DNA of 64,000 nt from a virus: the IMG/VR virus record IMGVR_UViG_3300024978_000001; one strand, given 5' to 3'. Shown piece by piece: positions 4,732 to 61,936 of this stretch. Each line of letters starts with the position of its first letter. Position 1 is the first letter of the stretch. The notes beneath the pieces are model-generated. The model did no database searches. It saw only the letters and a list, made by a program, of their open reading frames with translations, and was not told the origin of the DNA. Made by a program: the position numbers and the translations under genes.

Positions 4732-4971
4732 TTATGGTTGCTGGGAAGCAGCGAGCGGCTTCGGATTGCGAAGCACGTCGAACAGGACGAGCGTCTGTTT
4801 CGCTCGACCTTGGAGATTGAGGATCGCTTCCGCGGGGGCGTCAGTTACCGCCACGGTAATTTCAGTCGCGTAGACCTCGAACGCGGACAAGAACGCCTGA
4901 TAGCTTTCCGGGTCCGCGTTCCGGAGCACGAAGGCGAAATGCCTAAGATGGTCGACGGCATGTGGCGTCAT
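4732..4971 (-). CDS. hypothetical protein (79 aa)
   Basis: ORF track. ATGA-type overlap with 4968..5174. Contains a palindrome copy at 4845. Confidence 0.5.
   Translation of the reverse strand: MTPHAVDHLRHFAFVLRNADPESYQAFLSAFEVYATEITVAVTDAPAEAILNLQGRAKQTLVLFDVLRNPKPLAASQQP
4845..4859. repeat. TTACCG-N3-CGGTAA palindrome copy
   Basis: TTACCGCCACGGTAA, inside CDS 4732..4971 (sense frame reads T-V-A-V). Confidence 0.95.
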
Positions 4972-5174
4972 TCAGGAAGCCCCGGGAGACCGCTCGGCGG
5001 AGGAGCCGGCTGATCCGAGTCCGCCATCGGGGTCGCCTTGGCGTAAGACTGGATGTTGGGGACGCCGCCGCCAGCGGAGGGGAGGAAGCGTTGCGACGAG
5101 CCCTTGTTCGGCGAGGAGTGCAACGTGCCCTTCTTGTGGACGCCGATCGGCGTCATATGCTTCTTGAACATCAC
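4968..5174 (-). CDS. small basic Gly/Pro/Lys-rich protein (68 aa)
   Basis: ORF track. 4-nt overlaps with both neighbours. Low-complexity sequence (HKKGTLHSSPNKGSS, GGGVPN). Confidence 0.45.
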   Translation of the reverse strand: MMFKKHMTPIGVHKKGTLHSSPNKGSSQRFLPSAGGGVPNIQSYAKATPMADSDQPAPPPSGLPGLPE

Positions 5175-5392
5175 ATCCCCCTGAATGTCGGTCCGAACGG
5201 ACTGGGCTGTCGCGAGCCGGCGGAAGGCTTTGAGCCCTTGCCGTAATCACGGCGGCTTCGCATCGGCTTTGGTGCACCGCCGACGTTGGGCATCGCGGAT
5301 GCGCCTGGCCCGAGCGCAGACGTCTGGTCGGGTTTCGGAGACGCCTTTGGCGCCCCCGGACCCTGCGATGTTCCTTTGATGCGGAACACCAT
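5171..5392 (-). CDS. small basic Gly/Pro/Lys-rich protein (73 aa)
   Basis: ORF track. Overlaps its neighbours by 4 nt and 1 nt. Low complexity (GPGAPKASPKPDQ, GKGSKPSAGS). Confidence 0.45.
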   Translation of the reverse strand: MVFRIKGTSQGPGAPKASPKPDQTSALGPGASAMPNVGGAPKPMRSRRDYGKGSKPSAGSRQPSPFGPTFRGM

Positions 5393-5637
5393 TATCGCGC
5401 GCTCGTGATACCGGCCTTCGCTGGCTCGCTCGCAGCGTAGCCGAACATCTTGCCGGAACCGCCTTTGGCGAACTTGCCGCCATTGCCGGCCGAGTCATGC
5501 TCCGTCACGCCCGGCTTCTGCGAGCCCGCGGCGTCGCTCGGCGCGGTCGTGGTTCGATCGCCATGGCCGAACATCGGGGTGTTGCCGCCTTCGGCGAACT
5601 TGGCGTTCTTCTCGGTCTTCTTGGTGAAGTTGGCCAT
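5392..5637 (-). CDS. small protein with an internal KFA-x-GG-x3-MFG repeat (81 aa)
   Basis: ATG at 5637 with GGAGGG upstream (the ORF is open from 5676). MANFTKKTEKNAKFAEGGNTPMFGH ... GGKFAKGGSGKMFGY. Confidence 0.55.
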   Translation of the reverse strand: MANFTKKTEKNAKFAEGGNTPMFGHGDRTTTAPSDAAGSQKPGVTEHDSAGNGGKFAKGGSGKMFGYAASEPAKAGITSAR

Positions 5638-5709
5638 AACGGCCCTCCGTGAAATAGGGGGATCAAATTGAACCACCCACTCGTGCGTGCAGGGCAGTTG
5701 CGACTTCGT

Positions 5710-6336
5710 TTATTGCTGGACTGCAACCATAAGGTCGCCGTCACGCGCCGGCAGATAGCGCTTCGGTTTGTCGAAGCACGACGCGATCTGGTTGACTGAT
5801 TGCGTAACGCCAGGAACAACAACGCACGCCCCCGGCTTCGCCTGCAGGAACGCCTCCACCGCCTCGTTGACGTGGCACCAGGAACGGATCTGATCGCCGG
5901 AGCCGAAGATCGTGATCTCGTCCTGCGCTGCGCACTTCTCCATAAAGCTGTGGCCGCCATCGCCATAGACGTTCGGCAGGCGGACAACGGCGCAGCCGAA
6001 ATAGCGGGCGTAGTCCTCGCACACGCGCTTGGAGATGGCGTAAGGGTTGACCGGGTAGTTCACCATGGCGCTGGACGCGAACACCACGCGATCGGTGTAC
6101 CGCTCGAAGACCCGCAACGACCCTATGATGTTAGTGCTCGCGTCGCTTCGCGCATCCTTGCAATAGGCGTCGGTTTGCGCCGCGAGGTGATAGACCTGTT
6201 TCGCATCCGGAAGATCGCAGTCGCGAATATCCGTTCCACGCTTCAAGTCGATGCGATGGATGATCTCGCCGCGGCACTCAAGCCGCGCGCACAGATGTTT
6301 GCCGATGAACCCGTCGGCGCCGGTGACCACGATCAC
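5710..6336 (-). CDS. short NAD-dependent epimerase/dehydratase-like (SDR) protein, about 208 aa
   Basis: VIVVTGADGFIGKHL Rossmann motif (GxxGxxG) and YAISK (YxxxK). GTG start at 6336 overlaps the TGA of the upstream gene (GTGA). The longer ORF to 6588 overlaps the methyltransferase and was rejected. Confidence 0.7.
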   Translation of the reverse strand: MIVVTGADGFIGKHLCARLECRGEIIHRIDLKRGTDIRDCDLPDAKQVYHLAAQTDAYCKDARSDASTNIIGSLRVFERYTDRVVFASSAMVNYPVNPYAISKRVCEDYARYFGCAVVRLPNVYGDGGHSFMEKCAAQDEITIFGSGDQIRSWCHVNEAVEAFLQAKPGACVVVPGVTQSVNQIASCFDKPKRYLPARDGDLMVAVQQ

Positions 6337-7275: not shown

Positions 7276-7931
7276 ACTGAGGCTCTAAAATTGCTGAACA
7301 GGCTGCCGTTGTGGTCAGCCGCGTACCAGTGGAATGGAAGTTTGGTTTTCTGCTCGACGCGGGCCCAGGTGTTGACTTCCCACTCGACGTTCTTGGTGCG
7401 TGCTGTGTGTTGCCTGGCGGCCACCCGACACTCGTAGTCGAGCTGGTCGACCATTTTGCGCGGCACCACGAGCACTGAGCCGCAGAACCGCCAACAGGGG
7501 TACGCGCTCTCGACCGCGAGCGGCCGGGGCCAACAGCCTGGGGCGTAGATCGCATTGTCGTCGAGCCTGCTGACGAAGTCGGAAATTACCGTGGCGGTAA
7601 CGCCGGGGAGGCGAAACACGCCGTAGTCGACCCAACACAGCACGTCCGCGTCAGCGTCTTCGTCGGCGGCCTGCACCAACCATGTCGTCTTCTGATGGTT
7701 GACGCAGTGGTAGGCGAGCGTGTTCTTCGCCGGGTTGTCGCCTTCGGAGACGCGCGGGATGTAGTCGAGACCGCGGACGTATTTCCACATCCAGGTGTCC
7801 TCGACGCGCTGGTAGAACGCCTTCTTGGGCACGGGTACGGCGCCGAGCAACTCGCCTAGCTTGCCATACTCGCCCGGACCGCGAGGGTGGCCGACGATCG
7901 GGATATAACCGGTAACGAGGCGCACCTTCAT
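7272..7931 (-). CDS. hypothetical protein; candidate glycosyltransferase by context only
   Basis: 219-aa ORF, ATGA-coupled to both neighbours within the sugar-modification gene run. No motif I can name with certainty. Confidence 0.5.
   Translation of the reverse strand: MKVRLVTGYIPIVGHPRGPGEYGKLGELLGAVPVPKKAFYQRVEDTWMWKYVRGLDYIPRVSEGDNPAKNTLAYHCVNHQKTTWLVQAADEDADADVLCWVDYGVFRLPGVTATVISDFVSRLDDNAIYAPGCWPRPLAVESAYPCWRFCGSVLVVPRKMVDQLDYECRVAARQHTARTKNVEWEVNTWARVEQKTKLPFHWYAADHNGSLFSNFRASV
7586..7600. repeat. TTACCG-N3-CGGTAA palindrome copy
   Basis: TTACCGTGGCGGTAA, inside CDS 7272..7931 (sense frame reads V-T-A-T-V). Confidence 0.95.
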
Positions 7932-18519: not shown

Positions 18520-19165
18520 TGCCTTTTGCTGCGATGACAAGATCGCTACCGGCTCCAAGGTCGATAACAATCTGGTATCTCTCTCCTGTGGGGGCAGGCC
18601 CAGAAGGTGGAGTGTCGACACCTGCGATTTTTGCAACGACCTTAAATGCTTCAACAACGTCGCCAAGTTTTTCGGCTGCATTGCCCATGCGGTTGCCGAT
18701 GACCGGCATCTGCTGTTCAAGCGCGGCGAGCGCTTGCATCCGGAGCCGCGCTTCTGTCGAGGCGGCGCCTTGCCAGACTTTGACTTCTTGCTGCAGCGTC
18801 GCCTTGAAGAACTTGTTGTGCTTGCAGAGGTACTCATACTGGGCCTGGGTCAGTTTGTATTTCTGCAGGATCGCCGGCAGCAGCCCGATGTCGTGCGCGA
18901 TCTCCCGCGCGAGCTGCGCCATGGCGACGGTCGTGATGTCCGGAGGACCCACGAGAGCTTTGACGGCCTGGACTTCGTCGTCGGTCAGTTCTTTTGGCGT
19001 TTGCTCGCTGAGATTGGTCCCGGTCGGGGGATGTGCGCCCCCTGTTCGGCCTGCAATATCTGCCCCGCTCGCAGGCTCTGCGTCTTGCACCAGGTCATTT
19101 ACCGTGGCGGTAACAAACCCCGTCTCGATCGTCTCGTCGAGAAACTCGGTAGGATCGGCGCTCAC
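18458..19165 (-). CDS. hypothetical protein; small-terminase candidate by position only
   Basis: 235-aa ORF upstream of the phosphoesterase and TerL. No recognisable motif. Confidence 0.5.
   Translation of the reverse strand: MSADPTEFLDETIETGFVTATVNDLVQDAEPASGADIAGRTGGAHPPTGTNLSEQTPKELTDDEVQAVKALVGPPDITTVAMAQLAREIAHDIGLLPAILQKYKLTQAQYEYLCKHNKFFKATLQQEVKVWQGAASTEARLRMQALAALEQQMPVIGNRMGNAAEKLGDVVEAFKVVAKIAGVDTPPSGPAPTGERYQIVIDLGAGSDLVIAAKGNAPASPGSDQTPALRADGKG
19099..19113. repeat. TTACCG-N3-CGGTAA palindrome copy
   Basis: TTACCGTGGCGGTAA, inside CDS 18458..19165 (V-T-A-T-V). Confidence 0.95.
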
Positions 19166-19734
19166 GCCGCCTCCTGCTGTTCATGTCCTTGAAGGTAGCG
19201 GCCCAGCATGCCGAGCACCTTGTCGCGCTCCGCGGCAGCGAGGGTGTAGCCCTGGCCCCAGATCGTCTTGAGCTCGACCCCGTGGGGTCGAAGTTTTTTG
19301 CGGATATGGCAGATGACCACGTCGATCATCTTCGGGTCGGTCTCGTCCGGCGCCAGCATCCGGGTGGTCTCGATCGCCGCGTGCACCTGCGCCTTGGTGA
19401 TCTGCGGCCGGCGCAGCAGCGCGATGAACACCGCGACCTGCAACCTTGTCAGCCTAAAGACGGCAGCGAGCGCGAGCCCCAGCGTGTGGTCGTCGAGATT
19501 GAGTGCTGACGACCCCGGCTGTTTGCGCGAGCGGCGGAATGTGCCGGGGGGCCAGTCGCTCTGCGGCAGCTCGACCAGCCGGCCATCCTCGATGGCGTAG
19601 CGGAGCACTTCATAGATCTCGTCGCTCGGGGTGTGCGTCGCCCTGGCGATGGCCCTAACTGGCACGCCTTCATCGGCGAGGGAGATCATCGTGTCTTCGA
19701 GCGGCACGACTTTGAGTGGCGGCTGCGGGATCAT
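19162..19734 (-). CDS. DNA-binding regulator with an OmpR/PhoB-type winged-helix C-terminal domain
   Basis: IDVVICHIRKKLRPHGVELKTIWGQGYTL matches the Trans_reg_C pattern. The N-terminus has an HTH-like segment, LADEGVPVRAIARATHTPSDEIYEVLR. ATG at 19734 (ORF open from TTG at 19749). First sizeable gene of the late block. Confidence 0.65.
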   Translation of the reverse strand: MIPQPPLKVVPLEDTMISLADEGVPVRAIARATHTPSDEIYEVLRYAIEDGRLVELPQSDWPPGTFRRSRKQPGSSALNLDDHTLGLALAAVFRLTRLQVAVFIALLRRPQITKAQVHAAIETTRMLAPDETDPKMIDVVICHIRKKLRPHGVELKTIWGQGYTLAAAERDKVLGMLGRYLQGHEQQEAA

Positions 19735-19735
19735 G

Positions 19736-19816
19736 TCAGTGGTTCGCAAAGAACATGACCAGTATGGTGGCGCAGACGATCGTCGTGCAAATCACCCAAG
19801 CAGTAGGAACGCTCAT
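19736..19816 (-). CDS. possible 26-aa hydrophobic leader peptide
   Basis: ATG at 19816. Translation MSVPTAWVICTTIVCATILVMFFANH. Its TGA sits 1 nt before the regulator ATG. Too short to judge. Confidence 0.2.
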   Translation of the reverse strand: MSVPTAWVICTTIVCATILVMFFANH

Positions 19817-28066: not shown

Positions 28067-28081
28067 TTACCGCCACGGTAA
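28067..28081. repeat. TTACCG-N3-CGGTAA palindrome copy
   Basis: TTACCGCCACGGTAA. Intergenic, runs into the AAAGGAG RBS, 15 nt upstream of ATG 28097. Confidence 0.95.
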
Positions 28082-41748: not shown

Positions 41749-41763
41749 TTACCGCGACGGTAA
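41749..41763. repeat. TTACCG-N3-CGGTAA palindrome copy
   Basis: TTACCGCGACGGTAA. Intergenic, 16 nt upstream of ATG 41780. Confidence 0.95.
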
Positions 41764-43285: not shown

Positions 43286-46200
43286 TTGAATGTGAGCGAC
43301 GCACGGAAGTTTTTGGGGGGCGTATTGGCCTGGCCGGAGGACGAGCAGTCCCCCGGCTGGGTCAACGTGCACGTCAACTCCAAGAACGATGACCCGAGCG
43401 ACACTAGCAATAAGAACAACGGCGGCAAGCCGTGGGTTGTCGGCTGGCCGTTTAAGGCCATTGACGATGCGCTGAGCCGCATCAACTGGTGCGAGAGCAC
43501 CGGCAAGTTTTACAACGCCTGGGTCTGCATGTCGCAACAGAGCGCGTGCACCAAGAGCCAGAAGACCGGCAAGCCCAAGGCGGTGCGTAGCGCGCAGACC
43601 GCCACCTATCTCAAGGCGATCTGGGTCGACGTCGACGTCAAGGCGGGAAGCCCGAAGCACTACGCAACCCAGGTCGACGCGTGGGCGGCGATCATGGCGT
43701 TCCACAAGAAGGTCGGTCTGCCGGACCCCTCCATGGTCGTGGACTCCGGGGGCGGTCTGCACATCTACTGGACCAGCAAAGATCATTTGTCGCTCGACGA
43801 GTGGAAGCCCTACGCTGTCGGCCTCAAGGCGCTGCTCATTCAAGAAGGTGTGAAGTGCGATGCCGGGCTGACCACCGACGCGGTGCGTATCCTGCGGGTC
43901 CCTGACACGCTGAACCACAAGTACACGCCAGCGCGCCCGGTGAAGCTGCTCCATGCCGGCGACGAGTACGACTTCCCTAAAGATCTAGCCGTGCTGCTTA
44001 CGGTTACCGCCGCGGTAACGCCGGCTGAGAAACCGGCGATCGTAATCGAGCCTGGGCACGAGCACTTGATCGGTGACCATCCTGACCCGGCTTTCGCCGC
44101 GCTCAAGCCCGACAACGCGCTGCAGGCGGGCTGCGGGCCATCAGGCCCGTTGCTGATCGACCCGACGCCGATCTTCGCAGAGAAAGGTTGCAAGTGGTTG
44201 CGCGAGGCGCTGCGCACCGGCGGGGCCGGCTTCGACCAGCCGCAGTGGAATTTGTCAGTGCTGTGCACCGTCTTCATGGAGAAGGGCAATGCGTTCGCGC
44301 ATGAAATCTCAAAGGGTCACGCGGAATACGGCTCGGGGGACGACACGCAGGCGCTCTACGATCGCAAGGTGGCGGACCGAGCAGACCGCGGAGTTGGGTA
44401 CCCAAGCTGCGCCACTATTGCTGGCGCTGGCAGCGCGCATTGCGCGACGTGCGACCATTTCAAGAAAGGGAAGTCACCGCTCAACATACGCGCTCTAAAG
44501 CCAGCGCCCACGAACGCGGTTACTGCGGCGGTAAACGGCAAGACGCTGCTGCTTCCCAACAGGTACTTCGTCGGCGACGACAACAAGATCTACTTCATGG
44601 ACCACCGCCTGGTGAAAGGCGAATACGTCGACGATCCGAAACAGCTCTTTCACAACATCATCGACGACGCGTATTCCACCAAGAACCCCGAGGCGCTGCA
44701 CCTGCATATCTCAACCGACAAGGGGAATTGGGACTGGATCACAATCGAGAAAGTGGACTTCGCCGGTCCCGGCTACGAGAAGAAGCTCGCTCAAGCGGGG
44801 TTGGACTATTGCGGCGAGAACAAGACAAAGTTGGAGGCGTTTTTTATGAGTTTCCTTGCACGTATGAAAGAAGCTGCTGAGCAGCAGGCCACCGTCAAAT
44901 TCGGCTGGTACCGGCCGAAGGGACCGATCGAGGGGTTCGCCTATGCCGGCCACATCTTCAAGACCGACGGATCGAGCACGCCGGCGAGCTACCCCGATGC
45001 AAACCTGCGCAGAAACTACCAGCCTCGTGGCAGCGTAGAGAACTGGCATACGACCGCTTCGTACATCTTCCGCCAGCGTCGGTCCGACTTCGATACCATC
45101 ATCGCAACCGCATTCGCCGCGCCGCTGATGGAGCTGACCGGACAGTCTGGTGTGATCGTCGCCTCGATGGGCGACCCGGGCTCGGGGAAGAGCTACGCGA
45201 TGGAGGTCGCCGCGGCGGTGTGGGGTAACCACAAACAGACCGTCGAGCGCGAGGGCACGACCGACAAGTCGTTGATCCACAAGCTGGGCTCGCTCGGGCA
45301 TCTGCCGGCGTATTGGGACGAAATCAGCGACCCTGTCCCGCAGGCGAGGTTTTTCGGCGTCGCGCAGCAAATCTCGGGGGGTGGCGAGGGCGGCAGGTTG
45401 ACCCAGAACATCAAGCAACAGAACCGCGGCGAGTGGAGCACCGTCCTCAACATCAACGGCAACAAGAGCTGGCGCGATTATGTGGTTTCAAAGCAGAAAG
45501 AGCACGGTGCCGGCTTGCGCCGCGTGCTCGAATACTGGGTGCCGAAGGATGTGCCGAACCCGCAAGGTCAGGTCCCGCCCAGCGAAGCCGATACCGCCCG
45601 CGCGCTGCTGCTTCACAATTATGGCGTCGTCGGCGAGCAGTACGCGCGGTACCTCGCGACGCACATGAGCCAAGTCTACCAGATGCTCAAGGCCAACACC
45701 GAATACTTCGAGGCCAAGCTGCAGCCCGACAAGCGAGAGAGCATGTGGCTGGCCGGGTGCGCAGTGCTGCTCACCGGCGCCGAGATCGCCACCAAGCTGG
45801 ACACGCCGGTGGAGTTCAACATCGGGCGGCTGGCCGACTTCTTGATCAACGTGTTCTTGAGCAACCGGCGCTACAGCAGCACCGCGCACACGAGCCCAAC
45901 GGATAATGCGGAAGACTACCTCGCGCAGTACCTCAAGGACCGCTCAGATGAAACGATCTGGACAATGGGCACATTCAAGGGCAGGGGGCGGCCGGGGCAG
46001 CAAGGGCAAGTAGAGTGGCGTCGCTTGCAGCCGAATGCCAGTGTGCGCAACGGCATTTCAGTGCGGTGGGATGGTCAGTCGATGACATTGAGTTTCTCGA
46101 AGACCAACTTCGTGGATTGGTGCGCCGGCAAGCCGGATAAGCGCGACCCCAACGTCATCGTTCGGGCGCTGGAAGGGATCTACAAGCTGCGCGGCGACCG

Positions 46201-50100: not shown

Positions 50101-52352
50101 CTGGGGTTCTTCGCGCGTAGCAGCTTGCGCGCCTCGCGCTCCATCACGGTGGGGGCGTGGTTATCGGCAGAAGGGCGATAGGGCTTGGCGGCGCCCTTCA
50201 TGGTGAAGTCCGCCGCCTTCGCGCGCTCAAGGAAGTCCTTGGCGCGTGCGACCGTGGCGGCTTTGTCTTCACCCTCCGCCGGGCTGGTCGCCTCGAAGGC
50301 GTCGTCGAGCGCCTTGATGTTCTTGCTCTTACCCGCGGCGCTGGCCTTGTCCTTGGCGCTGACGGTAAGACCTTCGACCTTCGGCGCCTCCGTGCGGATG
50401 CGGTCCGGGCGGGCGGGTACAGCGGCGGTGCCGTTGATGTATTTGCTGGCCTCACCCAGGCGCTTGGACGGCTCCATCGCCATGAAGTGCTCGATCGCCT
50501 CGTCAGGTATGCCGTTCGCCTTCATCTTGTTTACCGCGGCGGTAACGACCTTCGGCAACGGCTTCTCGCCTTCGGTCGGGCCGGCGCTCTCGGTCGCTGC
50601 CTCGTCGAATGGCTTGGTCTTCTTGCCGGGCTTGGCGAGCCAGTCTTTCAGCTCGTCGGCGGTGGCCTCCTTTATGGAGAGCACGCGGTCCGGGCCCGAG
50701 CCGTCGTTGAAGGCGCGGTGATAATGCTCCAGCGCGTCCACCGGGTCCTTGGCGTAGGCCATGACCTTGTGCTCGTCGAACTTGCCAGTTGCCGGGTCCT
50801 TCTGGTCGATGACGAAATGCCGGTCGCCGGTGCCCAGCACACCCACGTCGACGCGGTCGCCGTCGGCGCCTTTGGTGCCTAGGAACTCGCCGTAATCGTA
50901 GGGGAAGTTCTCCACGCGCCACTTCGGCGGCGTGCTCTTGGTGTCTTCGCGGACGCCACCTTTGGGGGTTTCGATGCTGACATCGCGGCCGAACAGCCGG
51001 CCCGGATGGCCCTTGGCGTAGTTGCCGGCTTCGGCCTGCGCGGGCGTCGGCTGCGCGACATGCTCGCGGGCGTCGGCTACCTTCTGTGCGTCGGGGTGAA
51101 CCGCCTCGGGCTGCGCAGGGGCGAGCCCAACGTCGGCATCAGACAGCGTCGGTGCCTCGGGGGAGGGCGGCGTTTCAGGGGCTGCTTCGGGCGCAGGCTT
51201 TTTGAGCCCGAGTGTCGGCTTTGCCGCGTTCGGGTTTGGCGGCGTAGGCGGCGCAGTGTCCGAAATTTGTACAGGATTTTCTGACACAGGCGCGGCTTCG
51301 GAAGGCGCCTGCTGCGGAAACCCCGTCTGGATCGGCGCCTCTTTCAACGATGCGTCGATGTCCACTTTCGGATTGCCGAGATCCTGGTTGCCGGCGTTCC
51401 GGAACGCGTTGAGCGCAGCAGCAACATCGGGCGAGTAATCGCCCTGCGTCAGCATGTCGGTCGCCTCGGACGCGGGCTTGGCACCCTTCGCGAGATTTCT
51501 TCCGGCGTCGCCGACCGTGGGCCGCGACTGCGGGTTGCCGATGGTATCGCCCTTGACGTCGGGTGCGGGTTTCTCGGATGCAACGCCGCGGGCGACGTTG
51601 GGCGGCGGGCTGCTCGCCGCCTCGTCCTGCGCCGCTTCGGCATCGGGGCTGGCGCTGGCGTTGGGGCGCCCGGGGATGCGCTTGGCGAGCTTCGCCCCCA
51701 TGCGCTGGCCTGGGCCCGTGAACTTTTCGCCGAGCCTGTTGGTACCGGGGAGCACCGCGCCGGCTGCGGCGGCAGTGAGGACCTTGCTCGGGCTCACCTT
51801 GCCTTCGGTCGCGTATTCTTGGCCTGCTTCAAGTCCGCCTTGCAGCGCCGCGCTGGCGCCGCGCACCAGTTTGCCCGCGCCCGCGGCGGGCCCCATACCC
51901 GCCATGTTGGTGGCGAGCTCAGTGGCGAACGTCTCATAGGGGTGGGCGTTGCGGTTGGCGGCAACCTGCTCGCTGTCGTCGATACCGATCGCATCAAGCC
52001 CGGCCTGCTGCGCCTTCGAAGTCGCGTAACTGGAAACAAGCGCTCCGGCTAAACCGCCGGCAATCGTACCGATCGGGCCGAATGCCGACCCGAGCTCGGC
52101 GCCGGTCGCAGCACCAAAATAACCAGCAGCCGCCGGGGCGGCCGTGTGCGCCACGGTGCGCGCGGTGCGCGCGGGGAAACCCTCGGGGGCAGGACGTGAC
52201 CCAACGCCTACCTCGTCGTCCGAGAGTAGCCCCACGTCTTCGTCGGACATGAAGGATTGTTCACCTTGCGGGGGCGCGGCGCCGTTACCGTCAATGCCGA
52301 CCTGGCTATCGTCGAGCAGACCGACATCCGAGTCGGAGAGCATATCTTCCAT
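47169..52352 (-). CDS. giant (1727 aa) virion-associated or internal protein with an inorganic-pyrophosphatase-like domain
   Basis: FPYDYGEFLGTKGADGDRVDVGVLG...KFDEHKVMAY aligns with the family I PPase core (Y-x-x-N-Y-G...D-G-D-P-x-D-V-x-V). Acidic repeated DVGLL motifs at the N-terminus. Lies last in the run of tail and internal-protein genes. Confidence 0.8.
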   Translation of the reverse strand: MEDMLSDSDVGLLDDSQVGIDGNGAAPPQGEQSFMSDEDVGLLSDDEVGVGSRPAPEGFPARTARTVAHTAAPAAAGYFGAATGAELGSAFGPIGTIAGGLAGALVSSYATSKAQQAGLDAIGIDDSEQVAANRNAHPYETFATELATNMAGMGPAAGAGKLVRGASAALQGGLEAGQEYATEGKVSPSKVLTAAAAGAVLPGTNRLGEKFTGPGQRMGAKLAKRIPGRPNASASPDAEAAQDEAASSPPPNVARGVASEKPAPDVKGDTIGNPQSRPTVGDAGRNLAKGAKPASEATDMLTQGDYSPDVAAALNAFRNAGNQDLGNPKVDIDASLKEAPIQTGFPQQAPSEAAPVSENPVQISDTAPPTPPNPNAAKPTLGLKKPAPEAAPETPPSPEAPTLSDADVGLAPAQPEAVHPDAQKVADAREHVAQPTPAQAEAGNYAKGHPGRLFGRDVSIETPKGGVREDTKSTPPKWRVENFPYDYGEFLGTKGADGDRVDVGVLGTGDRHFVIDQKDPATGKFDEHKVMAYAKDPVDALEHYHRAFNDGSGPDRVLSIKEATADELKDWLAKPGKKTKPFDEAATESAGPTEGEKPLPKVVTAAVNKMKANGIPDEAIEHFMAMEPSKRLGEASKYINGTAAVPARPDRIRTEAPKVEGLTVSAKDKASAAGKSKNIKALDDAFEATSPAEGEDKAATVARAKDFLERAKAADFTMKGAAKPYRPSADNHAPTVMEREARKLLRAKNPSDKAVEAFRAQEKLLRSGGEGVAEARATGRIESDIGLSKRSGDEAIAGAEAERATHNSVEDDIIDAIDRANASKGEFDVPHEEAESMVRPEPATPESIAEERAATKHLDTNNPSDRAALAAALVQKRSTNKGGMVGSSKTGVALGEGSTPENPKASAVRKIDPKTLDPEYIKRLLEGASAPRPGSRLDSADIVKMTKEARDPTTKSLGRLFMDDEAGALNLDKIIADIQKFKAKVKAGDYFKHAKLESHIARPAKSAAEQYARSLSTEAVKVIKGNEQQLIDLQHWSKSLPKELNNPATLRRLYDAREAGTIGNLDPKEQALYNKYLEPLFNENDALYEAAKTVLPKHLVAMLGEKVEGDHAMRIPAGEKADRNMFVDDERDDPIVSGRQGLPVRPVNTMLERKFYAMEDPKGNRFLIAANDDGFTVWHNRKPIKVTDENFEYAPGKQYTVGGKTFTMKKALTSEIEDHALFGPGEKAKYYHNAALSAAMANYDLGRILRYNKFVEGFKEDPEFLKYAAPPGAKIPDGYLPTKLANFSGKNGAWHFDPQLAYALDDMAQPGINEGAVAYIRRISQAITKTIFWLPVAHLANVGGHWFVGRGQRWAVPKSYLSLADTSLKAIKSVVTQDDFQKAIRQNGGSTIYSGVLTQDAVNNLARGFGEAVRKQPARWDPIARKFGVGPSDLVRAVYKASSRVMWAGNDMFLTQAIMERMNEGMDIDQAIIHAERHIPNYRVPSTVLGTGAGARVVAQLLLEPAATVFGRYHWGIMNSYGNTIRDLVKGNGAAKIDALGHLFAMGLLGLVIYPALDAAAKYITGNKGASQQRRGPISVPAHIVDALRGKEDITAPLKSLVTPSPLLTAVLQAKDNRDYRGKPIVERGLVAQAAKGNVRAGGQAAVEAGEFAARNLFSPYNTYANTVDSGHSVAGGLRDQMLDIKNPSRRSVAYSAKTSRYNMQSLRQRNRSGRGPLEGLYTKATR
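50531..50545. repeat. TTACCG-N3-CGGTAA palindrome copy
   Basis: TTACCGCGGCGGTAA, inside the giant gene (V-T-A-A-V). Confidence 0.95.
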
Positions 52353-52357: not shown

Positions 52358-53917
52358 CTACTCCGCCCGCTGCCAGCCATTACCCATCCATTTGAACGGG
52401 CCTTTCGGCGTCTGATAGACCTGACCAACTACACGTTCGTTGGCCGGCGGGACCTGATGTCCTCCCTGTGCCGGTGCGTTCTGCGTCGGTTGCGCGCCCG
52501 TGCCGCCGGGCTGCGGGATTTGGCCCCCCGGGCCAGCTATCCCTGTGGTGAACTTGTCTACCTGCCCGACGATCGCGTCCTGCTGCTCGCTCGGCAGATT
52601 GGCGAAGTTGGGGTCGAGCAATTTGGCGCGCAGCATGCGCCCCATCTCGCGCATGCGACCGTCCCGGGTCTGCTGCATCATCTTGGTCAGGGCGAGGTTC
52701 GTTTGCCCCTGCAGGCGCTTGGTCTCCGCCTCCGACCGGATTTGCGCGGACTTAACTCGGGCGCCGGCACTGGTCTCTGCGCTCTTAACCCTCGCCCCGG
52801 CCGCTTCCCTTGCGACGCCCAGGCGCGCGCGCTCCTGTCCCTCGGCGATCTGGCGCTTGTTATCCAGCTCGTCGCCGCGGGTGGTTTCGCTGGCCAGATA
52901 TTGGTTGCGCGCAGCGTTCTGCGACACGGACGGAAAGAGCGACATCGCGCGCCCTCTCACGTCGGCATCATCGACCCCGCGCGTCGATGACGAAACTCCG
53001 CGCCCCACCAGCGTGAAGCCATCCGGGTTCTTGCCGTTGAGGCGGTTATTCCAATCGGTGTAGTCGTTGTCGCCGCCCGACAGATCCACAAAGTCGCGCT
53101 TCATGTTCTGCTTGGTGATCTCGTCCGGCTCAAACTTGGTCGTGTCGCCGACAGGCGCCGACAGATCCACCAGCGAGCTGCTCGGCTTGCCTTCCTTCGT
53201 GGTGCCCACGATCTTCTGCAACGTGCCGCTGATGCCGCCGTTCGACATGACGTGGTCCCACTGGCCGGCGCCGCCGATGTCGAGGTATTTGTCGAACTGC
53301 TCGGGCGTGAGGGTGTAATTCTCCGTCTGGTTCGAGCCCGGGGCTTTTACCGTCGCGGTAACGCCGTTGCCCCCCGGGTCGGCAGTAAACGTCGCTTGCG
53401 AGCCGTCGAGGATGTTCTGCGAAGCCTGGCTCGCCGCGTTCGCCGCGGCCTGGAGGTCGCCGGCCTTGCCGTCGACGCCGTTCAGCGCCGCCTTCGCGAA
53501 CGCCTGTTTGCGGTCGTATGCGGAGCGGTTGTACTGGATCATCGCCCAGCCGGCCGCGGGGCCACCCATCTCGGTGGCCTGATGCACGGCAAGGACGTTG
53601 GCCTCGTCGTCGCTGATGTTCGGATGCTGCGCCTTGACGTTCTGCGCGGCGCGCTCGGCCTCGGCCGGGTCGGCGCTGTCCGCCCCCATCAGATAATGCA
53701 GGATGCGCTTCGCGCCGCCGGCGACAGCACTGGCCCCGCTACGCGCCGCGTTGATCGGCAGCATGCCATTATCTTGCGCATACCACGGACGGTCGCCGCC
53801 TAGCGTCGCAGGCTGCTCTTGCTCTGGCTCCGGAATAGCGGGCTGCCCACTCTCCGGCGCGGCGCTCTGTTCCTGCTCCTGGTCGTCGGGGATCGCGCCC
53901 TCAAAATCGTCGGCCAT
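52358..53917 (-). CDS. hypothetical internal virion or tail-associated protein (519 aa)
   Basis: ORF track. TAATG coupling to the upstream gene. Acidic N-terminus MADDFEGAIPDDQEQEQ. Confidence 0.7.
   Translation of the reverse strand: MADDFEGAIPDDQEQEQSAAPESGQPAIPEPEQEQPATLGGDRPWYAQDNGMLPINAARSGASAVAGGAKRILHYLMGADSADPAEAERAAQNVKAQHPNISDDEANVLAVHQATEMGGPAAGWAMIQYNRSAYDRKQAFAKAALNGVDGKAGDLQAAANAASQASQNILDGSQATFTADPGGNGVTATVKAPGSNQTENYTLTPEQFDKYLDIGGAGQWDHVMSNGGISGTLQKIVGTTKEGKPSSSLVDLSAPVGDTTKFEPDEITKQNMKRDFVDLSGGDNDYTDWNNRLNGKNPDGFTLVGRGVSSSTRGVDDADVRGRAMSLFPSVSQNAARNQYLASETTRGDELDNKRQIAEGQERARLGVAREAAGARVKSAETSAGARVKSAQIRSEAETKRLQGQTNLALTKMMQQTRDGRMREMGRMLRAKLLDPNFANLPSEQQDAIVGQVDKFTTGIAGPGGQIPQPGGTGAQPTQNAPAQGGHQVPPANERVVGQVYQTPKGPFKWMGNGWQRAE
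53347..53361. repeat. TTACCG-N3-CGGTAA palindrome copy
   Basis: TTACCGTCGCGGTAA, inside 52358..53917 (V-T-A-T-V). Confidence 0.95.
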
Positions 53918-56608: not shown

Positions 56609-59333
56609 TAGCCATCCCCTTCACTGTCGTGCCGACTTCAAAACTTGAGATGTGCAGCCGCGTGATTATGCGGAACTGCCAGGTCTCGTGCTTGAAGCCG
56701 CTGGTGATGCGCAGCAGCTCCTTCGTCTTGCGCAGCTCGCGCGCCGTAACCAGTTGGCCCCCGGAGTAGACCAGGATGAACCCCCAACGGTCGTTGGGTA
56801 GCCCATTGATCCAGAACGGATCAGTGATCGGGTTCTCCGCACGCGTTGCGTTCAACGCTGGCGTGTTCGGCGGTACCTCAAATGTGAAGCGCATAACCTC
56901 GAAGTTCTTTCGAGTGCGTTGTTTGTATTTCTTCGACGTCCAGTCGACGACGGACAGCGCCGGCGCTGCGTCAGTGAAATCCAGATAGTAGAGCCCGTTT
57001 CGCGCGATGAAGGTGGCGACAGCACTCCACGGGTCAACCGCAACCATCGCAAGCGGGGCTGACAACGGGTTGCTCAAAAGCTGAAAGCCGAGTCGATGCC
57101 GGCCGGGTTGCGGCCAAATGGTGAAACTCTCGGCATCGGATGCGTTCATTTCAACGGTGAAGCCGCGGACGCCTTGGCCGCCTTCGTTCCCGTTGGGCCC
57201 GACTTGGTAAGCGAAGTAGCACGAGTTCAAGAGTACAGCGACGAGTGAGCTCTGTGGCGTGAGCTGCTGCCACTTCTCCCGCGTGATCCACGTCTCGGTG
57301 ACGTTCTTGACCTGGCCGTACTGCGTGACCAAGATCAGGCCATTCTTCGAGGCGTAATAGACGCCATCATTGTTGCCGACGATGCTCTTGCGCGAATGGC
57401 ATGGCTCGCTGTTCTGGATTTTCATTGCGGTCATCGCGCCCGGGAAAACGCCAGTCGTGACGTATGGCGCGCCGGACGTCGCGGCGACCAAGGAGTTGCC
57501 GGTGACGCCAAGACCGACGATCGGATATTCCGTCGTCTGCACGTAGGACGGGGGCCACGCGTGCGGGCGGTACGGCTCGCAGAACCAGATCTCGTTGGCG
57601 CGCCAGCCGGCGAGAACGCCATTCGGCATCACAACAAGCCCCTGCAGATCCTCCGGCGGCGGCGTCCACAACTGGCTCTGCAACTGATTATTGTTCACAA
57701 CCACGTCGTCGCTGATGACGTCGAGATATTCCGCAGTCGTAACCGGCAAGTCGTCGCCGTCTGTACCGGTGACCTGGTAGTAAGTCGTGCCGCCGCTCAG
57801 CGCCGTGATCGTGCGATAAAGCCGCAGCTTGGTGATGTTGCGGGTGACGCCGATCTGATCCGCCGGCGGTTGGAATAGACTGATCGTCCATGTGGCGTTA
57901 GACCAGCCAGTCGCCGTCGTAGGCGGTGAGGGGGCGCTCTCCTCACCGTACTCAGTGATGTAGGTGTAAACGTATGTCCGTGCTTCGAGCACGCTCGATG
58001 TCGTTAGATCGCCCCACATCTGCAGGCTGGCGACACCAACGCTGAGGTTGGTGAGAACGTTCGGCGGTCCGTTCGCGTAAGTATTGTTTGATGTCACGCC
58101 CGCGGTACCGCTGTCGGCGGTGTGAATATCGAACGCCGTATCGCATGCGAAGCCGATCCAATACTGCACGTTCATCAAGAGCCCGGTCGGGTTCACGAAC
58201 TCGCTCGTGATCGCTTGGCCGGAGGTTGTCGTAAACTGAACTGCCGCCCCGACATTCAGTAGATCGCGCGGCGTCCCGTTGTCGTCGCTGTAAAGCACAG
58301 CGACCAGATTGCCGGTCTGGCCAGACACAGCAGCCATAACGGAGATGTCATTGAGCATCATGGCGCCGTCGGGCGTGACCGGCATGAGGTATATCTTATT
58401 CGCCCCCGGGGCTACCGTCGTTGGCGCGTTCGACGTCGGTACACCGAGCTGTGCGGAGCTGCCGCCCCCGCTGACTTCGACCCCGGGGGTGCACCCGGGG
58501 GGCGGCACGCCGAGCAGCCAGGCCGGCTCCCCCGCCTGAATGCGGGTACGCGTGTTGTACGTCGGCGCGGCCGAGGCACTGGCGATATAGAACCGCGCGT
58601 ATTGGTCGTCGACCAGCGGCGACCGCACCACGTCGGTGTTCGGCTCGACGAACTCCATGAAGGTGCTCGCCCCGGTGATGTCGGTCGCGATCTCGACGTT
58701 CTCGCCGCCCAGCAGGGTGGTCGTAGCTGCGCCGTTGAAGCCCCAGCTCAGACGCCCGCCGGCGTTCGCGCCCACCGCCGTGTTGTTGTAAGCGGCGCCG
58801 ACATCCGGCGCGTACACCGTGATTGCCGGCGGCGTGGTGTCGATCTGCAGGATATTCTTGGTCTGCGGCGACGTCTGGTCGATCGCCGGGTTGGCGGTCG
58901 TGCCGACGCCGTACAGGGTGCCCTTGTTGGCGCCGGTGCCGTTGTCGTAAGTCAGCGCGGCGAAAAGATTGGTGGCCGTAGCGGCAGCGGAGCCACCAAT
59001 CTTTACCTGATAAGCTGCGGTTACCGTGGCGGTAAACGTATAGGTCTCCTCGCCGACGGTAACCGTATCGCCTTCATTCGGGCTCGCGTCGAAACGCAGA
59101 AAGGCGTTCGCCGCCGCGCTGCTTTCGTCCGGCACCCGGTAGATGTAGCCGGGGTTGCTGAGCGTAGTGTTGCGCAGCAACTTCGGGATACGCCAGCCTT
59201 CGAGGCCGCCCGAGAATAGATAGCCGTTAGTGGAAGTCGCAGCCTGCCCGTCGGGCAGCAAGTAGGGGTCCCAGGCGGGCAGGGCCCCCCCGAATTTGTC
59301 TACCCGAAAGCTATCGTCTCTCTGCTCGGCCAT
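56601..59333 (-). CDS. large tail protein (910 aa), function by size and position
   Basis: The largest structural ORF after the giant gene, beta-rich. Lies upstream of the internal-protein run, as tail tubular or nozzle proteins do in podoviruses. Confidence 0.7.
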   Translation of the reverse strand: MAEQRDDSFRVDKFGGALPAWDPYLLPDGQAATSTNGYLFSGGLEGWRIPKLLRNTTLSNPGYIYRVPDESSAAANAFLRFDASPNEGDTVTVGEETYTFTATVTAAYQVKIGGSAAATATNLFAALTYDNGTGANKGTLYGVGTTANPAIDQTSPQTKNILQIDTTPPAITVYAPDVGAAYNNTAVGANAGGRLSWGFNGAATTTLLGGENVEIATDITGASTFMEFVEPNTDVVRSPLVDDQYARFYIASASAAPTYNTRTRIQAGEPAWLLGVPPPGCTPGVEVSGGGSSAQLGVPTSNAPTTVAPGANKIYLMPVTPDGAMMLNDISVMAAVSGQTGNLVAVLYSDDNGTPRDLLNVGAAVQFTTTSGQAITSEFVNPTGLLMNVQYWIGFACDTAFDIHTADSGTAGVTSNNTYANGPPNVLTNLSVGVASLQMWGDLTTSSVLEARTYVYTYITEYGEESAPSPPTTATGWSNATWTISLFQPPADQIGVTRNITKLRLYRTITALSGGTTYYQVTGTDGDDLPVTTAEYLDVISDDVVVNNNQLQSQLWTPPPEDLQGLVVMPNGVLAGWRANEIWFCEPYRPHAWPPSYVQTTEYPIVGLGVTGNSLVAATSGAPYVTTGVFPGAMTAMKIQNSEPCHSRKSIVGNNDGVYYASKNGLILVTQYGQVKNVTETWITREKWQQLTPQSSLVAVLLNSCYFAYQVGPNGNEGGQGVRGFTVEMNASDAESFTIWPQPGRHRLGFQLLSNPLSAPLAMVAVDPWSAVATFIARNGLYYLDFTDAAPALSVVDWTSKKYKQRTRKNFEVMRFTFEVPPNTPALNATRAENPITDPFWINGLPNDRWGFILVYSGGQLVTARELRKTKELLRITSGFKHETWQFRIITRLHISSFEVGTTVKGMANV
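59021..59035. repeat. TTACCG-N3-CGGTAA palindrome copy
   Basis: TTACCGTGGCGGTAA, inside 56601..59333 (T-A-T-V-T). Confidence 0.95.
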
Positions 59334-60142: not shown

Positions 60143-60146
60143 ACGA

Positions 60147-60566
60147 TCAGTCCTTTCGGTTGATGATGGCGTGGGCGATGCCGACGCCGCCCGACGTAAT
60201 GAATATCCCGCCGATAATCAGGCCGCCCCAATCGGTGAGCAGCGCATATTTCAACGGCGGTGTCGTGCCCCACCCCAGACACAGGTCCCAGACGATCACC
60301 TTGTTGAGGTAGAAGATGAATGGGAATGCAAAGCCAACCACGACGAACGACAGCACCCATGACGACGCAACAGCCTGCATCCAGCCTACTTTGGCCTGGT
60401 TGCTTGCCACCTCCGCTTGGACTGCGGCGACTGCAACGTCGCGGGTCGTGCCCCAGCGCGCCTGGTACATCGACACCTTGCTATCGTACACCTTGCCGAC
60501 CACGAACTGCGCGAGCGCAGTGAAGCCAGGGATCAGATGCAGGAGCGAGAGAAGGGCCGCGATCAT
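60147..60566 (-). CDS. multi-pass membrane protein, holin candidate
   Basis: Three or four hydrophobic helices (IAALLSLLHLIPGFTALAQFVV; SSWVLSFVVVGFAFPFIFYL; WGGLIIGGIFITSGGVGIAHAII). Lies in the lysis cassette. Confidence 0.55.
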   Translation of the reverse strand: MIAALLSLLHLIPGFTALAQFVVGKVYDSKVSMYQARWGTTRDVAVAAVQAEVASNQAKVGWMQAVASSWVLSFVVVGFAFPFIFYLNKVIVWDLCLGWGTTPPLKYALLTDWGGLIIGGIFITSGGVGIAHAIINRKD

Positions 60567-60802
60567 TTAGGCCCTCGTTGCCAGTCTTCACGCCGGCGCC
60601 GCAAGAGCTCGGCGACGAACCCGTTCACGAGGATGTAGCACTGCAGCAGACGGTGGTCGCTGATGAATGCGGTCATGTCGACCTGTTGCGCGGCGGTGTA
60701 GAACGCGAAGAACACAAACTGCATGCGCGCCCACAGGATCGTTTCGCTCGAACGAAACGACGCGTGAAACCTCGCCCACCAACCTCGAACTGTCTGTTTC
60801 AT
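60563..60802 (-). CDS. small membrane protein (79 aa), lysis-cassette component
   Basis: ATG at 60802 forms an ATGA overlap with the endolysin stop. Hydrophobic ILWARMQFVFFAFYTAAQQV. Confidence 0.45.
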   Translation of the reverse strand: MKQTVRGWWARFHASFRSSETILWARMQFVFFAFYTAAQQVDMTAFISDHRLLQCYILVNGFVAELLRRRREDWQRGPK

Positions 60803-61593
60803 ATGTGCACCACTTTGTTCGCCGCAGCGGCGGCGCGCTCGTGGAGCAGCTCGTAAACCACTCCAGCAGCAACGACAGCGCCGCACGCGGCGGCGATGCC
60901 CCACCACGGAGCGCCGGCGGCGTAGCCCGCAGTGCCGACAGCGACAACGCCGCCCACTGCCGGGGCGCTGGCGGACTTCGCTGCGTGCGTAGCTTTCGGC
61001 AGTCCGGGAATAACATTGGGCGGCGGCGGCACAGCAGTCGGCTTCCGCGTACCTCCGGCGGCAAGCTGTTTGCTGTAACTACGAAGATCTTCCACACGCT
61101 TTTGCCAGCCGCGGCCGAACTCCTTCCACGCCTCGCCATTCCGGATCGACCGCATGAACTTGAGCCGCTCGGCGCAGGTTTCGTCGATCAGCCACCAGGG
61201 GTCGACCTTCCCGACCGCCTTGACGAGCGCTGCGTCCATCTTGTTACCGCCTGGCGTGTTAAGCAGGCGGCGCCACACCAGGACGGGGCGCGCAACCCCG
61301 GAGTTGACCCCGTAATCGAGCCCGACCACATCGACCCCAGACGGCAAATCGTCGAAGTAGAGCGGCAACGCGTACTTGAGACGGTAGATCTGCTCGGCTT
61401 CGTCCAGCGTCATAGCCCGCACGATCGGCGCCCACGCCGCCATCGACGTCATCTTCTCATGGCGAAACTCGGCGAGGTCGTAGCAAGTGATGCCGTACTT
61501 CGTCGGTCCGCCGGTGTCCTTCTTGTTCCACCCATAACCGCCTTCGTAGTCGTGGATCAGGCGGTCAATGAAAGCCGTGTAGTTGGCGTACAT
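60799..61593 (-). CDS. endolysin, glycoside hydrolase family 108-like with a peptidoglycan-binding region and a hydrophobic C-terminal segment
   Basis: YEGGYGWNKKDTGGPTKYGIT matches the GH108 E-G-G-x...D-x-G-G-x-T-x-x-G-I signature. The C-terminus is VGGVVAVGTAGYAAGAPWWGIAAACGAVVAAGVVY. Confidence 0.8.
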   Translation of the reverse strand: MYANYTAFIDRLIHDYEGGYGWNKKDTGGPTKYGITCYDLAEFRHEKMTSMAAWAPIVRAMTLDEAEQIYRLKYALPLYFDDLPSGVDVVGLDYGVNSGVARPVLVWRRLLNTPGGNKMDAALVKAVGKVDPWWLIDETCAERLKFMRSIRNGEAWKEFGRGWQKRVEDLRSYSKQLAAGGTRKPTAVPPPPNVIPGLPKATHAAKSASAPAVGGVVAVGTAGYAAGAPWWGIAAACGAVVAAGVVYELLHERAAAAANKVVHI

Positions 61594-61603
61594 TGGCGCC
61601 TCC

Positions 61604-61936
61604 TTAAGCGTGCGGCGCCTCCGGCGCGGGTGCGGCCGGCGCGGGCACTGGCGTTACCGTGGCGGTAACGGACGGGACCTGGACCTGAGCGGGCGGCGCT
61701 GGGGTTGGAGCGGGCGGAGGAACGGGAACGATCTTCGAGAAGACATCCGCCACCGCGGCTTTAACGTCGGCCTTGGCCTTGGCCTCGACGTTCGCCATCG
61801 CCGACCGAAATTCGGCTGAGGTACCGGAAACCCAGTCCTTGATCTTCTGGCTGAACAGAACTCCGGCGACGAGAGACGCCGTACAAAGAACAGCGGTGCT
61901 GGTAGCGTAGCTGATAGCGGTGGTGAGGAACGGCAT
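61604..61936 (-). CDS. N-terminally anchored membrane protein with a Pro/Ala-rich tail (110 aa); holin, spanin or antiholin candidate
   Basis: MPFLTTAISYATSTAVLCTASLVAGVLF, then a helical segment, then PVPPPAPTPAPPAQVQVP. Confidence 0.55.
   Translation of the reverse strand: MPFLTTAISYATSTAVLCTASLVAGVLFSQKIKDWVSGTSAEFRSAMANVEAKAKADVKAAVADVFSKIVPVPPPAPTPAPPAQVQVPSVTATVTPVPAPAAPAPEAPHA
61654..61668. repeat. TTACCG-N3-CGGTAA palindrome copy
   Basis: TTACCGTGGCGGTAA, inside 61604..61936 (V-T-A-T-V). Confidence 0.95.

Follow-up and report, generated by a model that had tools for sequence, protein, structure and literature searches.

Why does a phage genome carry one exact palindrome, TTACCG-N3-CGGTAA, again and again, both between its genes and inside them, and what reads it? 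This question is raised by the IMG/VR virus record IMGVR_UViG_3300024978_000001, of which we analyzed a stretch of 64,000 nucleotides (the window). A preliminary description of this DNA, made from its letters alone, listed 17 perfect copies and 5 copies with one mismatch, and all 22 are present at the coordinates that it gave. The array is strongly non-random, is maintained by purifying selection on the DNA, and is conserved across a large, mostly uncultured clade of phages with one culturable member. We give about even chances to the idea that each dyad is a double-stranded DNA (dsDNA) site for a sequence-specific protein that the phage itself encodes. As judged from sequence comparisons, this reader would most likely come from an early gene module that includes g39.

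The dyad and its symmetry

In 100 dinucleotide-preserving shuffles of the window, perfect copies averaged 0.00, and copies with one mismatch or none averaged 0.05. The preliminary description had also proposed a codon-preserving shuffle. We permuted synonymous codons inside each gene, which keeps the proteins and the codon usage, and the 17 perfect copies fell to a mean of 2.2 (maximum 4); the copies that survived were those in intergenic DNA, which was left unshuffled. The drop-off from the exact motif is sharp: there are 17, 5, 1, and 17 copies with 0, 1, 2, and 3 mismatches, versus 0, 0.15, 2, and 19 by chance. The enrichment concerns the dyad only and not the half-site. Most TTACCG hexamers (17/23) belong to the dyad, a spacer of 3 is the only one present, and the isolated half-sites that are left over (6 and 13) are at or below the Markov expectation (~10 and 12).

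The central triplet is constrained as well. It is Y-N-R in all 22 copies in the window, which reads the same on either strand, and in 125 of 130 copies from ten related contigs, where its middle base is nearly always G or C. The symmetric Y-S-R center suggests that the functional unit is TTACCG-Y-S-R-CGGTAA, with a central base pair that is flanked on each side by a 7-bp half-site. The motif as first proposed was thus correct but too loose. Each asymmetric triplet occurs in both orientations within every transcription block, so the sites have no strand sense. The sequence that flanks the copies is not conserved within the window.

The preliminary description argued that selection acts on the nucleotides and not on a peptide. 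This is borne out by the codon shuffles, by the conservation of site positions within poorly conserved segments of proteins (see below), and by rare codons: about 80% of third codon positions in this genome are G or C, and GTT and GTA codons are fixed inside the motif despite this, which is a further sign of selection at the DNA level.

Conservation, placement, and variants of the sites

The two ends of the window are identical (63494-64000 matches 1-507; 507 bp at 100% identity), so the genome is complete and is circular or permuted, with 63,493 bp plus a 507-bp wrap. The repeat falls in a collagen-like fibre gene. The genes form three transcription blocks:

Block 1, 1-21.4 kb, leftward: structural, packaging, and glycosyltransferase genes
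Block 2, 21.9-46.4 kb, rightward: early and replication genes
Block 3, 46.4-63.5 kb, leftward: virion and lysis genes

GenBank contains no close phage at the DNA level, as megablast of 24 kb of the window against 50,697 phage records gave no match. At the protein level, four Rhizobium phages (the RHph_TM3_14A group) are the only relatives in culture; they are syntenic with the window (66% identity for the capsid and 38% for the DNA polymerase). The phage is a podovirus-like phage of Gram-negative soil bacteria; its host is likely, on weak evidence, a member of the Acidobacteriaceae. A scan of bacterial genomes with TTACCGTGGCGGTAA gave mostly single chance matches, and the sole related one was a phage-like contig binned with an Acidobacteriaceae metagenome-assembled genome (MAG). 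We considered Pseudomonas phage KPP25 as a control relative and set it aside: it has only the DNA polymerase and a helicase in common with the window, and the array is absent. A search for related loci from the primase protein alone returned none.

We scanned IMG/VR for exact matches to the three commonest variants of the motif and found hundreds of fragments, many of them from contigs of 57-68 kb that are related to the window. The protein identity of these contigs to the window ranges from 30% to 90%, and genes that can be aligned have about 70% DNA identity. Ten of these contigs, which we partly reassembled, have 10-20 perfect copies each. Where blastn could align the sites of the relatives, they all coincide with sites in the window (18/18). 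With mapping anchored on proteins, the perfect motif is kept in 26 of 60 alignable comparisons of a window site with a relative, and the ungapped flanks of the mapped sites have only 50% identity. The best-kept sites agree in all 12 outer bases and differ in the central triplet, and they lie in poorly conserved stretches of protein. Other sites are specific to a lineage, and the relatives also have sites of their own that are lacking in the window, so conservation and turnover coexist. The sites in the window are as follows (one-mismatch copies and the first copy are given with their sequence):

4845..4859: perfect, TTACCGCCACGGTAA; inside the small gene 4732-4971 (minus strand); perfect at the homologous position in 4/4 alignable relatives
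7586..7600: perfect; inside gene 7272-7931 (minus strand); not kept in 3 alignable relatives
19099..19113: perfect; close to the 5' end of the putative small-terminase gene 18458-19165 (minus strand)
22501..22515: perfect; its TAA ends the open reading frame (ORF) 22129-22515, and the ATG at 22533 is 17 nt downstream
24561..24575: perfect; inside gene 24382-24762 (plus strand); kept in the single alignable relative
26656..26670: one mismatch, TTACCGCCAAGGTAA; its TAA is the stop codon of gene 26353-26670
28067..28081: perfect; immediately 5' of AAGGAG-N8-ATG
31050..31064: perfect; 16 nt short of the end of gene 30805-31080
33543..33557: perfect; inside the DNA polymerase I gene 31849-33858; perfect in 5/8 alignable relatives
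35192..35206: one mismatch, TTACTGTGGCGGTAA; between genes 34636-35181 and 35197-35646
37263..37277: perfect; near the end of gene 37022-37336; kept in 3/3 alignable relatives, with flanks that are unalignable by eye
38255..38269: one mismatch, TTACTGCCGCGGTAA; inside the non-conserved HNH/EndoVII-like gene 37855-38664
39084..39098: perfect; 28 nt short of the end of the VRR-NUC gene 38749-39126
41288..41302: one mismatch, CTACCGTGACGGTAA; ~24 nt 5' of the likely true start (41326) of g64; RHph has a site just 5' of the aligned part of its g64 homolog
41749..41763: perfect, intergenic; right after the TAA stop of g64 and 16 nt before the ATG at 41780; kept in relatives (blastn)
44004..44018: perfect; inside the primase-helicase gene 43286-46378; specific to the window (0/8 relatives)
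44520..44534: one mismatch, TTACTGCGGCGGTAA; in a poorly conserved linker of the primase-helicase gene; 6/9 alignable relatives have a perfect copy at most 30 nt away, following a conserved KGKSPLN segment
46734..46748: perfect; on the minus strand, between a TAA stop and GGGGG-N5-ATG; kept in relatives (blastn)
50531..50545: perfect; inside the gene for a 1727-aa virion protein, 47169-52352 (minus strand)
53347..53361: perfect; inside gene 52358-53917 (minus strand); the most deeply conserved copy, perfect in 7/7 alignable relatives with CGA, CCA, CGG, or TGG as the triplet and flanks that barely align
59021..59035: perfect; inside the gene for a 910-aa tail protein, 56601-59333 (minus strand); perfect in 3/6 relatives, with a copy ~40 nt away in two more
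61654..61668: perfect; inside gene 61604-61936 (minus strand)

There is about one site per 3 kb, in intergenic DNA and within genes of all three blocks. About 9 of the 22 sites are at gene boundaries, and in several of these the dyad sits precisely between a stop codon and the ribosome-binding site that follows, or itself supplies the stop codon; the remainder are deep within genes. Two earlier remarks about spacing held only in part. The stretch 7601-19098 is indeed free of copies, but it has no statistical significance: 31% of random placements have an equal or longer largest gap. Neither this 11.5-kb gap nor regularity of spacing is significant (coefficient of variation of 0.82 versus 0.94 for random placement). 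The early block does have an excess of sites (14/22), but the excess is modest (binomial p = 0.015); RHph_TM3_14A has a similar one (p = 0.016). We found no systematic overlap of the sites with sigma-70-like promoters or intrinsic terminators. We scanned 20 kb (19000-38999) for terminators; of the 11 copies there, one is terminator-like, and its T-tract is a chance case. Because the sites show no tie to promoters or terminators, lack orientation, and are randomly spaced, they suggest a genome-wide function and not classical promoter control.

Other lineages have variants of the motif. RHph_TM3_14A has no TTACCG dyad; TTACC-N5/6-GGTAA takes its place, in 34 copies (26 with N6 and 8 with N5), versus ~0.13 expected for each spacer, with (G)TTACC(T)...(A)GGTAA(C) as the core. 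Half of these sites (17/34) are at most 40 nt from a gene boundary, which is about 3-fold above expectation (5.7). The arrays of the IMG/VR relatives of RHph are denser still: locus L592, which has an RHph-type replication module, packs 14 copies into 14.7 kb. When we scanned for the RHph-type motif, most matches were isolated and due to chance, yet several related loci with dense arrays were found. Within the clade of the window, locus L413 has the symmetric variant TTACGG-N3-CCGTAA (4 copies in 20 kb), and loci L423, L425, and L426 have the symmetric variant TTACTG-N3-CAGTAA. These lineage variants suggest that the reader and its sites have drifted together more than once.

Some relatives, such as IMGVR 3300046816_000070, 3300050019_000089, and 3300011439_000016, lack the array. 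A locus search with the family of g22, a winged-helix protein described below, gave 80 loci, and we took the array-less set from those of at least 12 kb. In the 22 array-less loci, there is no copy of TTAC-N7-GTAA and no other significant dyad. Two apparent dyads in such relatives were rejected. ACCGG-N5-CCGGT looked like a second class of motif, but it is an artifact of collagen-like Gly-Pro-Thr repeats in fibre genes; it appears in the fibre genes of L441, L446, and L464 that are homologous to 9955-11100 of the window, and it is a trap for dyad scans. In L462, CGGCATGATGCCG is not a dispersed dyad and is instead part of a longer, local repeat: there are five copies with conserved flanks at 1810-4086 of that locus, in a 2.3-kb part of its early region. 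These copies may be iterons or repeated regulatory sites.

Candidate readers and rival explanations

The proteins that matter most for the identity of the reader are these:

g22, 19162..19749, minus strand: OmpR/PhoB-type winged helix (PF00486), with PDB profile matches to ArlR, PhoB, and OmpR
g39, 25628..26356, plus strand: 242 amino acids, no known domain, a confident all-alpha model; the best candidate for the dyad reader
g41, 26850..27995, plus strand: AAA ATPase (phrog_1297); co-occurs with the arrays and is common to RHph
g43, 28264..28770, plus strand: conserved protein of unassigned function in the same early module; no PDB sequence match
g47, 29520..30839, plus strand: DUF2201 VWA-like (PF09967) and putative metallopeptidase (PF13203) domains; in 10/10 relatives and in RHph

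We found g39 in all 13 of the array-bearing loci that include enough upstream DNA, usually alongside g41, g43, and g47. In contrast, a full-sensitivity profile that included the RHph orthologue, EVB41_028, detected g39 in 0 of the 22 array-less loci. The g39-g41-g43-g47 module is also present in RHph_TM3_14A and in the RHph-type loci from IMG/VR. A locus search with the g39 profile found 12 close relatives only.

The sequence of g39 also varies along with the motif. We defined its invariant columns from 16 canonical sequences, some of which are just 32% identical to the protein from the window. The g39 of L413 has four radical substitutions at these columns (D63T, G119F, K147G, and D151S), and that of L425 has two (E81M and N99K). 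Overall, the variant lineages have changes at 6 of 54 invariant columns of g39, versus 18 of 1290 in the portal, the terminase, and g20 (Fisher p = 2e-4), and at 0 of 80 in g22 and g21. The AlphaFold model of g39 is confident, with a pLDDT (predicted local distance difference test) of 87, and shows a novel, all-alpha fold. Among viral proteins, its fold matched just two, both unannotated, one of which is probably the RHph orthologue. We disregarded matches to sigma-factor folds (probability of at most 0.09).

Thus, g39 is the best single candidate for the reader, and the reader is most likely encoded in its module. We infer protein binding, the identity of the reader, and its biological role from these patterns. 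The reader would bind symmetrically, with one subunit for each 7-bp half-site. Purifying selection holds the array in place, and the array would co-evolve with its reader in different lineages. The early module g39-g41-g43-g47 would encode the reader, perhaps as g39 itself, and g39 may act with the neighboring AAA ATPase and the VWA-domain protein. Bound sites might mark or organize the phage DNA, load a replication or repair machine, block elongating polymerases, or recruit an ATPase-driven machine. A bolder idea, to which we give a low probability, is that g39, the MoxR-like AAA ATPase, and the VWA/metallopeptidase protein form a new kind of phage system that acts globally by marking the phage's own chromosome as "self." Such a system may organize or anchor replicating DNA, direct a remodeling ATPase to it, or shield it, and its specificity would drift through matched changes in the reader and in every site. 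It would correspond, in a phage, to the site sets of SlmA, Noc, MatP, and ParB.

Several points weigh against g39 as a reader that binds the dyads as a dimer. The evidence for the g39 module is correlative, and the co-occurrence is confounded by phylogeny, as the array-less phages form a branch of their own with a different early region. The lineages with variant motifs amount to just two evolutionary events. g39 has no sequence match in Pfam, NCBIfam, PHROG, or the PDB, no DNA-binding domain was recognized in it, and a search with its fold gave no significant match in the PDB. Genes of the replication module that lie outside the 10-kb flanks, among them the primase-helicase, are equally eligible to encode the reader. 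The presence of both N5 and N6 spacings within one RHph genome is unusual for a rigid dimer. The enrichment of RHph sites at gene boundaries could reflect a role linked to expression, or intergenic DNA may merely tolerate the sites. Finally, an enzyme that modifies or nicks DNA would produce a sequence signature identical to that of a binding protein.

The preliminary description suggested three kinds of role for the dyads, and sites for a dimeric DNA-binding protein fit best, given that the Y-S-R center is symmetric, the sites are strand-neutral, and the half-sites vary independently. In the least probable of the explanations that we considered, the dyads would be hairpins of RNA or single-stranded DNA, with a 6-bp stem and a 3-nt loop, that serve as signals for processing, stability, or priming. 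A perfect inverted repeat can certainly fold, the copies at 22501, 28067, 41749, and 46734 lie exactly between a stop codon and the following ribosome-binding site, RHph sites cluster near gene boundaries, and in three of the one-mismatch copies, the C-to-T change would still allow G-U pairing in the plus-strand transcript. However, the sequence of the stem is what stays invariant. No copy in the window has a compensatory double variant, and across the 34 RHph sites, the degenerate positions on the inner and outer sides of the core are complementary in 13, 10, and 20 cases, versus 15.9, 14.6, and 19.8 expected from independent half-sites, so complementarity is not in excess. In addition, the constraint on the would-be loop is symmetric, each transcription block has both orientations, conserved copies lie deep within genes on either strand, and T-tracts are absent apart from the chance case. 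Since the sequence of the stem is conserved and its pairing is not, and since the center is symmetric with no strand sense, the dyad appears to be a dsDNA site that is read symmetrically, and the hairpin role is disfavored. There is a small chance that a site-specific DNA-modifying or nicking enzyme of the phage or the host targets the dyads, so that virion DNA is marked or interrupted there. A strict, symmetric, strand-independent dyad would suit such an enzyme, RHph is annotated with a methyltransferase, and a cluster of nucleotide-pool genes in the window (33855-35181: MazG, 33855-34199; a DUF4406/nucleoside 2-deoxyribosyltransferase-like gene, 34199-34639; and a dATP/dGTP pyrophosphohydrolase-like gene, 34636-35181) hints that a canonical nucleotide is depleted and that the DNA may contain a non-canonical base. 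On the other hand, the typical targets of methyltransferases are far shorter than 14 constrained positions, known nick sites in phages are asymmetric and on one strand, and no methyltransferase was found among the window proteins that we scanned. The sole candidates for a site-specific nuclease, a GIY-YIG gene and an HNH gene, are absent from ten of ten relatives.

Other proteins could bind the dyads. The preliminary description put forward the winged-helix protein (as 19162..19734), and in this explanation, which we consider very unlikely, the dyads would be operators of g22 acting as a global transcription regulator. Among 38 proteins of the window that we scanned (a subset of its ORFs), g22 has the only recognized sequence-specific DNA-binding domain, and it is conserved in the relatives. 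OmpR/PhoB-type regulators bind half-sites like GTAAA or GTTAC with a period of 10-11 bp, which resemble TTACC-N5/6-GGTAA. But g22 is kept without the array in many relatives: the 22 array-less loci retain it along with the large-terminase and portal genes (and, in all but one, the small terminase). Conversely, RHph_TM3_14A has a dense array and only a weak match to g22 (104 amino acids, E = 1.4e-4, below detection by Pfam), and the RHph-type array loci from IMG/VR that cover the terminase-portal region have no match. g22 does not change along with the motif either, with no changes at 25 invariant columns in both variant lineages, and the residue that aligns with a base-contacting position of PhoB is H, K, or N among phages whose motif is identical. 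These observations do not support g22 as the reader. Alternatively, the primase-helicase g67 (43286-46378) could load at the dyads or use them as origins, with many points of initiation or re-priming in either orientation; we give this the same small chance as a modifying or nicking enzyme. g67 carries DUF927 and resembles the replicative helicase Cch of SCCmec, and self-loading initiator helicases recognize specific, often palindromic, origin DNA. Also, g67 belongs to the set of modules in common with RHph, a conserved copy of the dyad lies in its own inter-domain linker, the replication block is denser in sites, and the dense array of L592 accompanies an RHph-type replication module. Against this, we did not find an AT-rich unwinding element or an iteron cluster beside the sites, we know of no precedent for 22 to 34 origins in ~60 kb, and g67 is among the least conserved of the core proteins (29-40% identity) even though the motif is identical across those phages. 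We think it even less probable than the g22 explanation that the dyads bind a host protein and titrate or recruit a regulator or nucleoid factor. The TTACC half-site is common to phages of different hosts (Rhizobium and probably Acidobacteriaceae), which might point to such a factor. But close phages from similar samples differ at one symmetric position of the motif, sister phages with the same structural genes lack the array, and the presence of the array follows a phage gene module.

Known site arrays and other features of the genome

According to the preliminary description, no described element has this consensus. That is true of the consensus itself, but the architecture has a published parallel in the Cluster O mycobacteriophages. 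Corndog and its relatives have a 17-bp repeat, TGTTCGG-NNN-CCGAACA, with 34 invariant copies in Corndog plus three with one change (PMC4351075). The authors inferred a dimeric binding protein and deemed control of transcription initiation to be unlikely; the reader and the function were unexplained in that 2015 paper, so there is no mechanism to borrow (PMC4351075). In both cases, inverted arms 3 bp apart occur in tens of copies, with invariant arms, few one-mismatch copies, and a central triplet that is variable but biased. In both, the copies are unoriented, are both intergenic and intragenic, and have positions that are mostly common to relatives, with the occasional loss of a site through a single base change. 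Like the window, a Cluster O phage has an AAA ATPase and glycosyltransferase genes within the structural block; it has no integrase, and none was seen among the 38 window proteins scanned. However, the arms differ (TTACCG versus TGTTCGG), the center is G+C-rich Y-S-R here and AAA/TTT there, and a podovirus-like phage of Gram-negative soil bacteria contrasts with a Mycobacterium siphovirus. Also, the clade described here is deeper (flanks are ~50% identical) and has lineage-specific variants of the motif. A tblastn search with the capsid matched 284 records of Mycobacterium phages, not sorted by cluster, all at below 60% identity. The likeness is one of architecture and not of descent, and the array is a new form of a type of element that was already known, though not explained.

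Another comparison is with the stoperators of Cluster A mycobacteriophages, which two papers describe as many genome-wide sites for one phage protein, the L5 gp71-type immunity repressor, with site sequence and reader co-evolving between lineages (PMC9283540, PMC6550527). As described there, stoperators are asymmetric, bind a two-domain monomer, and are oriented with transcription. They occupy short intergenic regions of temperate phages that have an immunity repressor. The dyads in the window are instead perfect, with a symmetric Y-S-R center, and they are unoriented and often intragenic. Pfam found no integrase or Cro/CI-type helix-turn-helix among the 38 window proteins scanned, and the "putative integrase" of RHph is a homolog of the primase-helicase.

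The dyads also recall the site sets that organize bacterial chromosomes and plasmids. SlmA-SBS, Noc-NBS, MatP-matS (GTGAC-RNY-GTCAC), ParB-parS, and KorB-OB of RK2 involve ~10-70 copies of palindromes of 13-16 bp. Such sites are scattered in genes and intergenic DNA independently of promoters, and a dimeric reader acts on the whole replicon. The R-N-Y center of matS is symmetric, as is the central triplet in the window. In a non-exhaustive scan, the window proteins included no ParB/KorB, SlmA/TetR, Noc, or MatP-like domains. Unlike the site sets that are linked to Ter or ori, the sites in the window have no comparable regional bias, and they are in a lytic-type phage genome. Nor do they resemble N4-type hairpin promoters: the sites are genome-wide and on both strands, and the giant virion protein matches an inorganic-pyrophosphatase domain only.

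It is rare for a phage to have one exact palindrome arrayed across its whole genome. The array described here adds selection across a deep clade that is strong enough to fix rare codons within genes, symmetric variants in sister lineages that imply a co-evolving reader, and a concrete candidate module. Because RHph_TM3_14A is a cultured member of the clade with an array denser than that of the window, work on binding, occupancy, modification, and knock-outs is feasible. If the reader and its role were found, they could reveal a new way for lytic phages to organize, mark, or protect their own DNA, and the reader could yield an orthogonal protein-DNA recognition pair with natural variants in specificity.

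Other features of this genome can be noted briefly. Besides the dyads, the window has six copies of a second palindrome, GGCCCG-N2-CGGGCC, and a perfect 36-bp palindrome at 22265-22300 (CAAAGGCTGCGCCCGCCATGGCGGGCGCAGCCTTTG) inside the first early ORF (22129-22515), which could be an attenuator, an operator, or a replication element. On the minus strand at 21398-21425, within the AT-rich divergent region, is a near-consensus sigma-70 promoter (TTGCCA-16-TATAAT, 11/12), which probably drives the leftward block that starts with small genes and also contains the winged-helix gene. The GIY-YIG nuclease (20337-20789, with zinc ribbons) and the HNH/endonuclease VII-like protein (37855-38664, with a one-mismatch dyad inside its gene) are probably homing endonucleases.

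Within the structural block, the regions 5710-13017 and 63091-63939 contain an epimerase-like gene, two glycosyltransferase genes, and, judging by eye, a metallophosphoesterase-like gene. One glycosyltransferase, of 661 amino acids, is 41% identical to a Tunturiibacter phage glycosyltransferase. Collagen-like (Gly-Pro-Thr) fibre genes adjoin these genes, and the set is reminiscent of virion glycosylation modules. In block 3, the 1727-aa virion protein (47169-52352) has an inorganic-pyrophosphatase-like domain (PF18823) at residues 438-572 and nothing that resembles an RNA polymerase. Finally, g66 (42079-43251) begins with a Cys-rich domain, continues with a low-complexity linker rich in Ser and Thr, and ends in an acidic tail; it looks like an unconventional single-strand DNA-binding protein. 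It is 70% identical to a protein of L141, a contig that is binned with an Acidobacteriaceae MAG.

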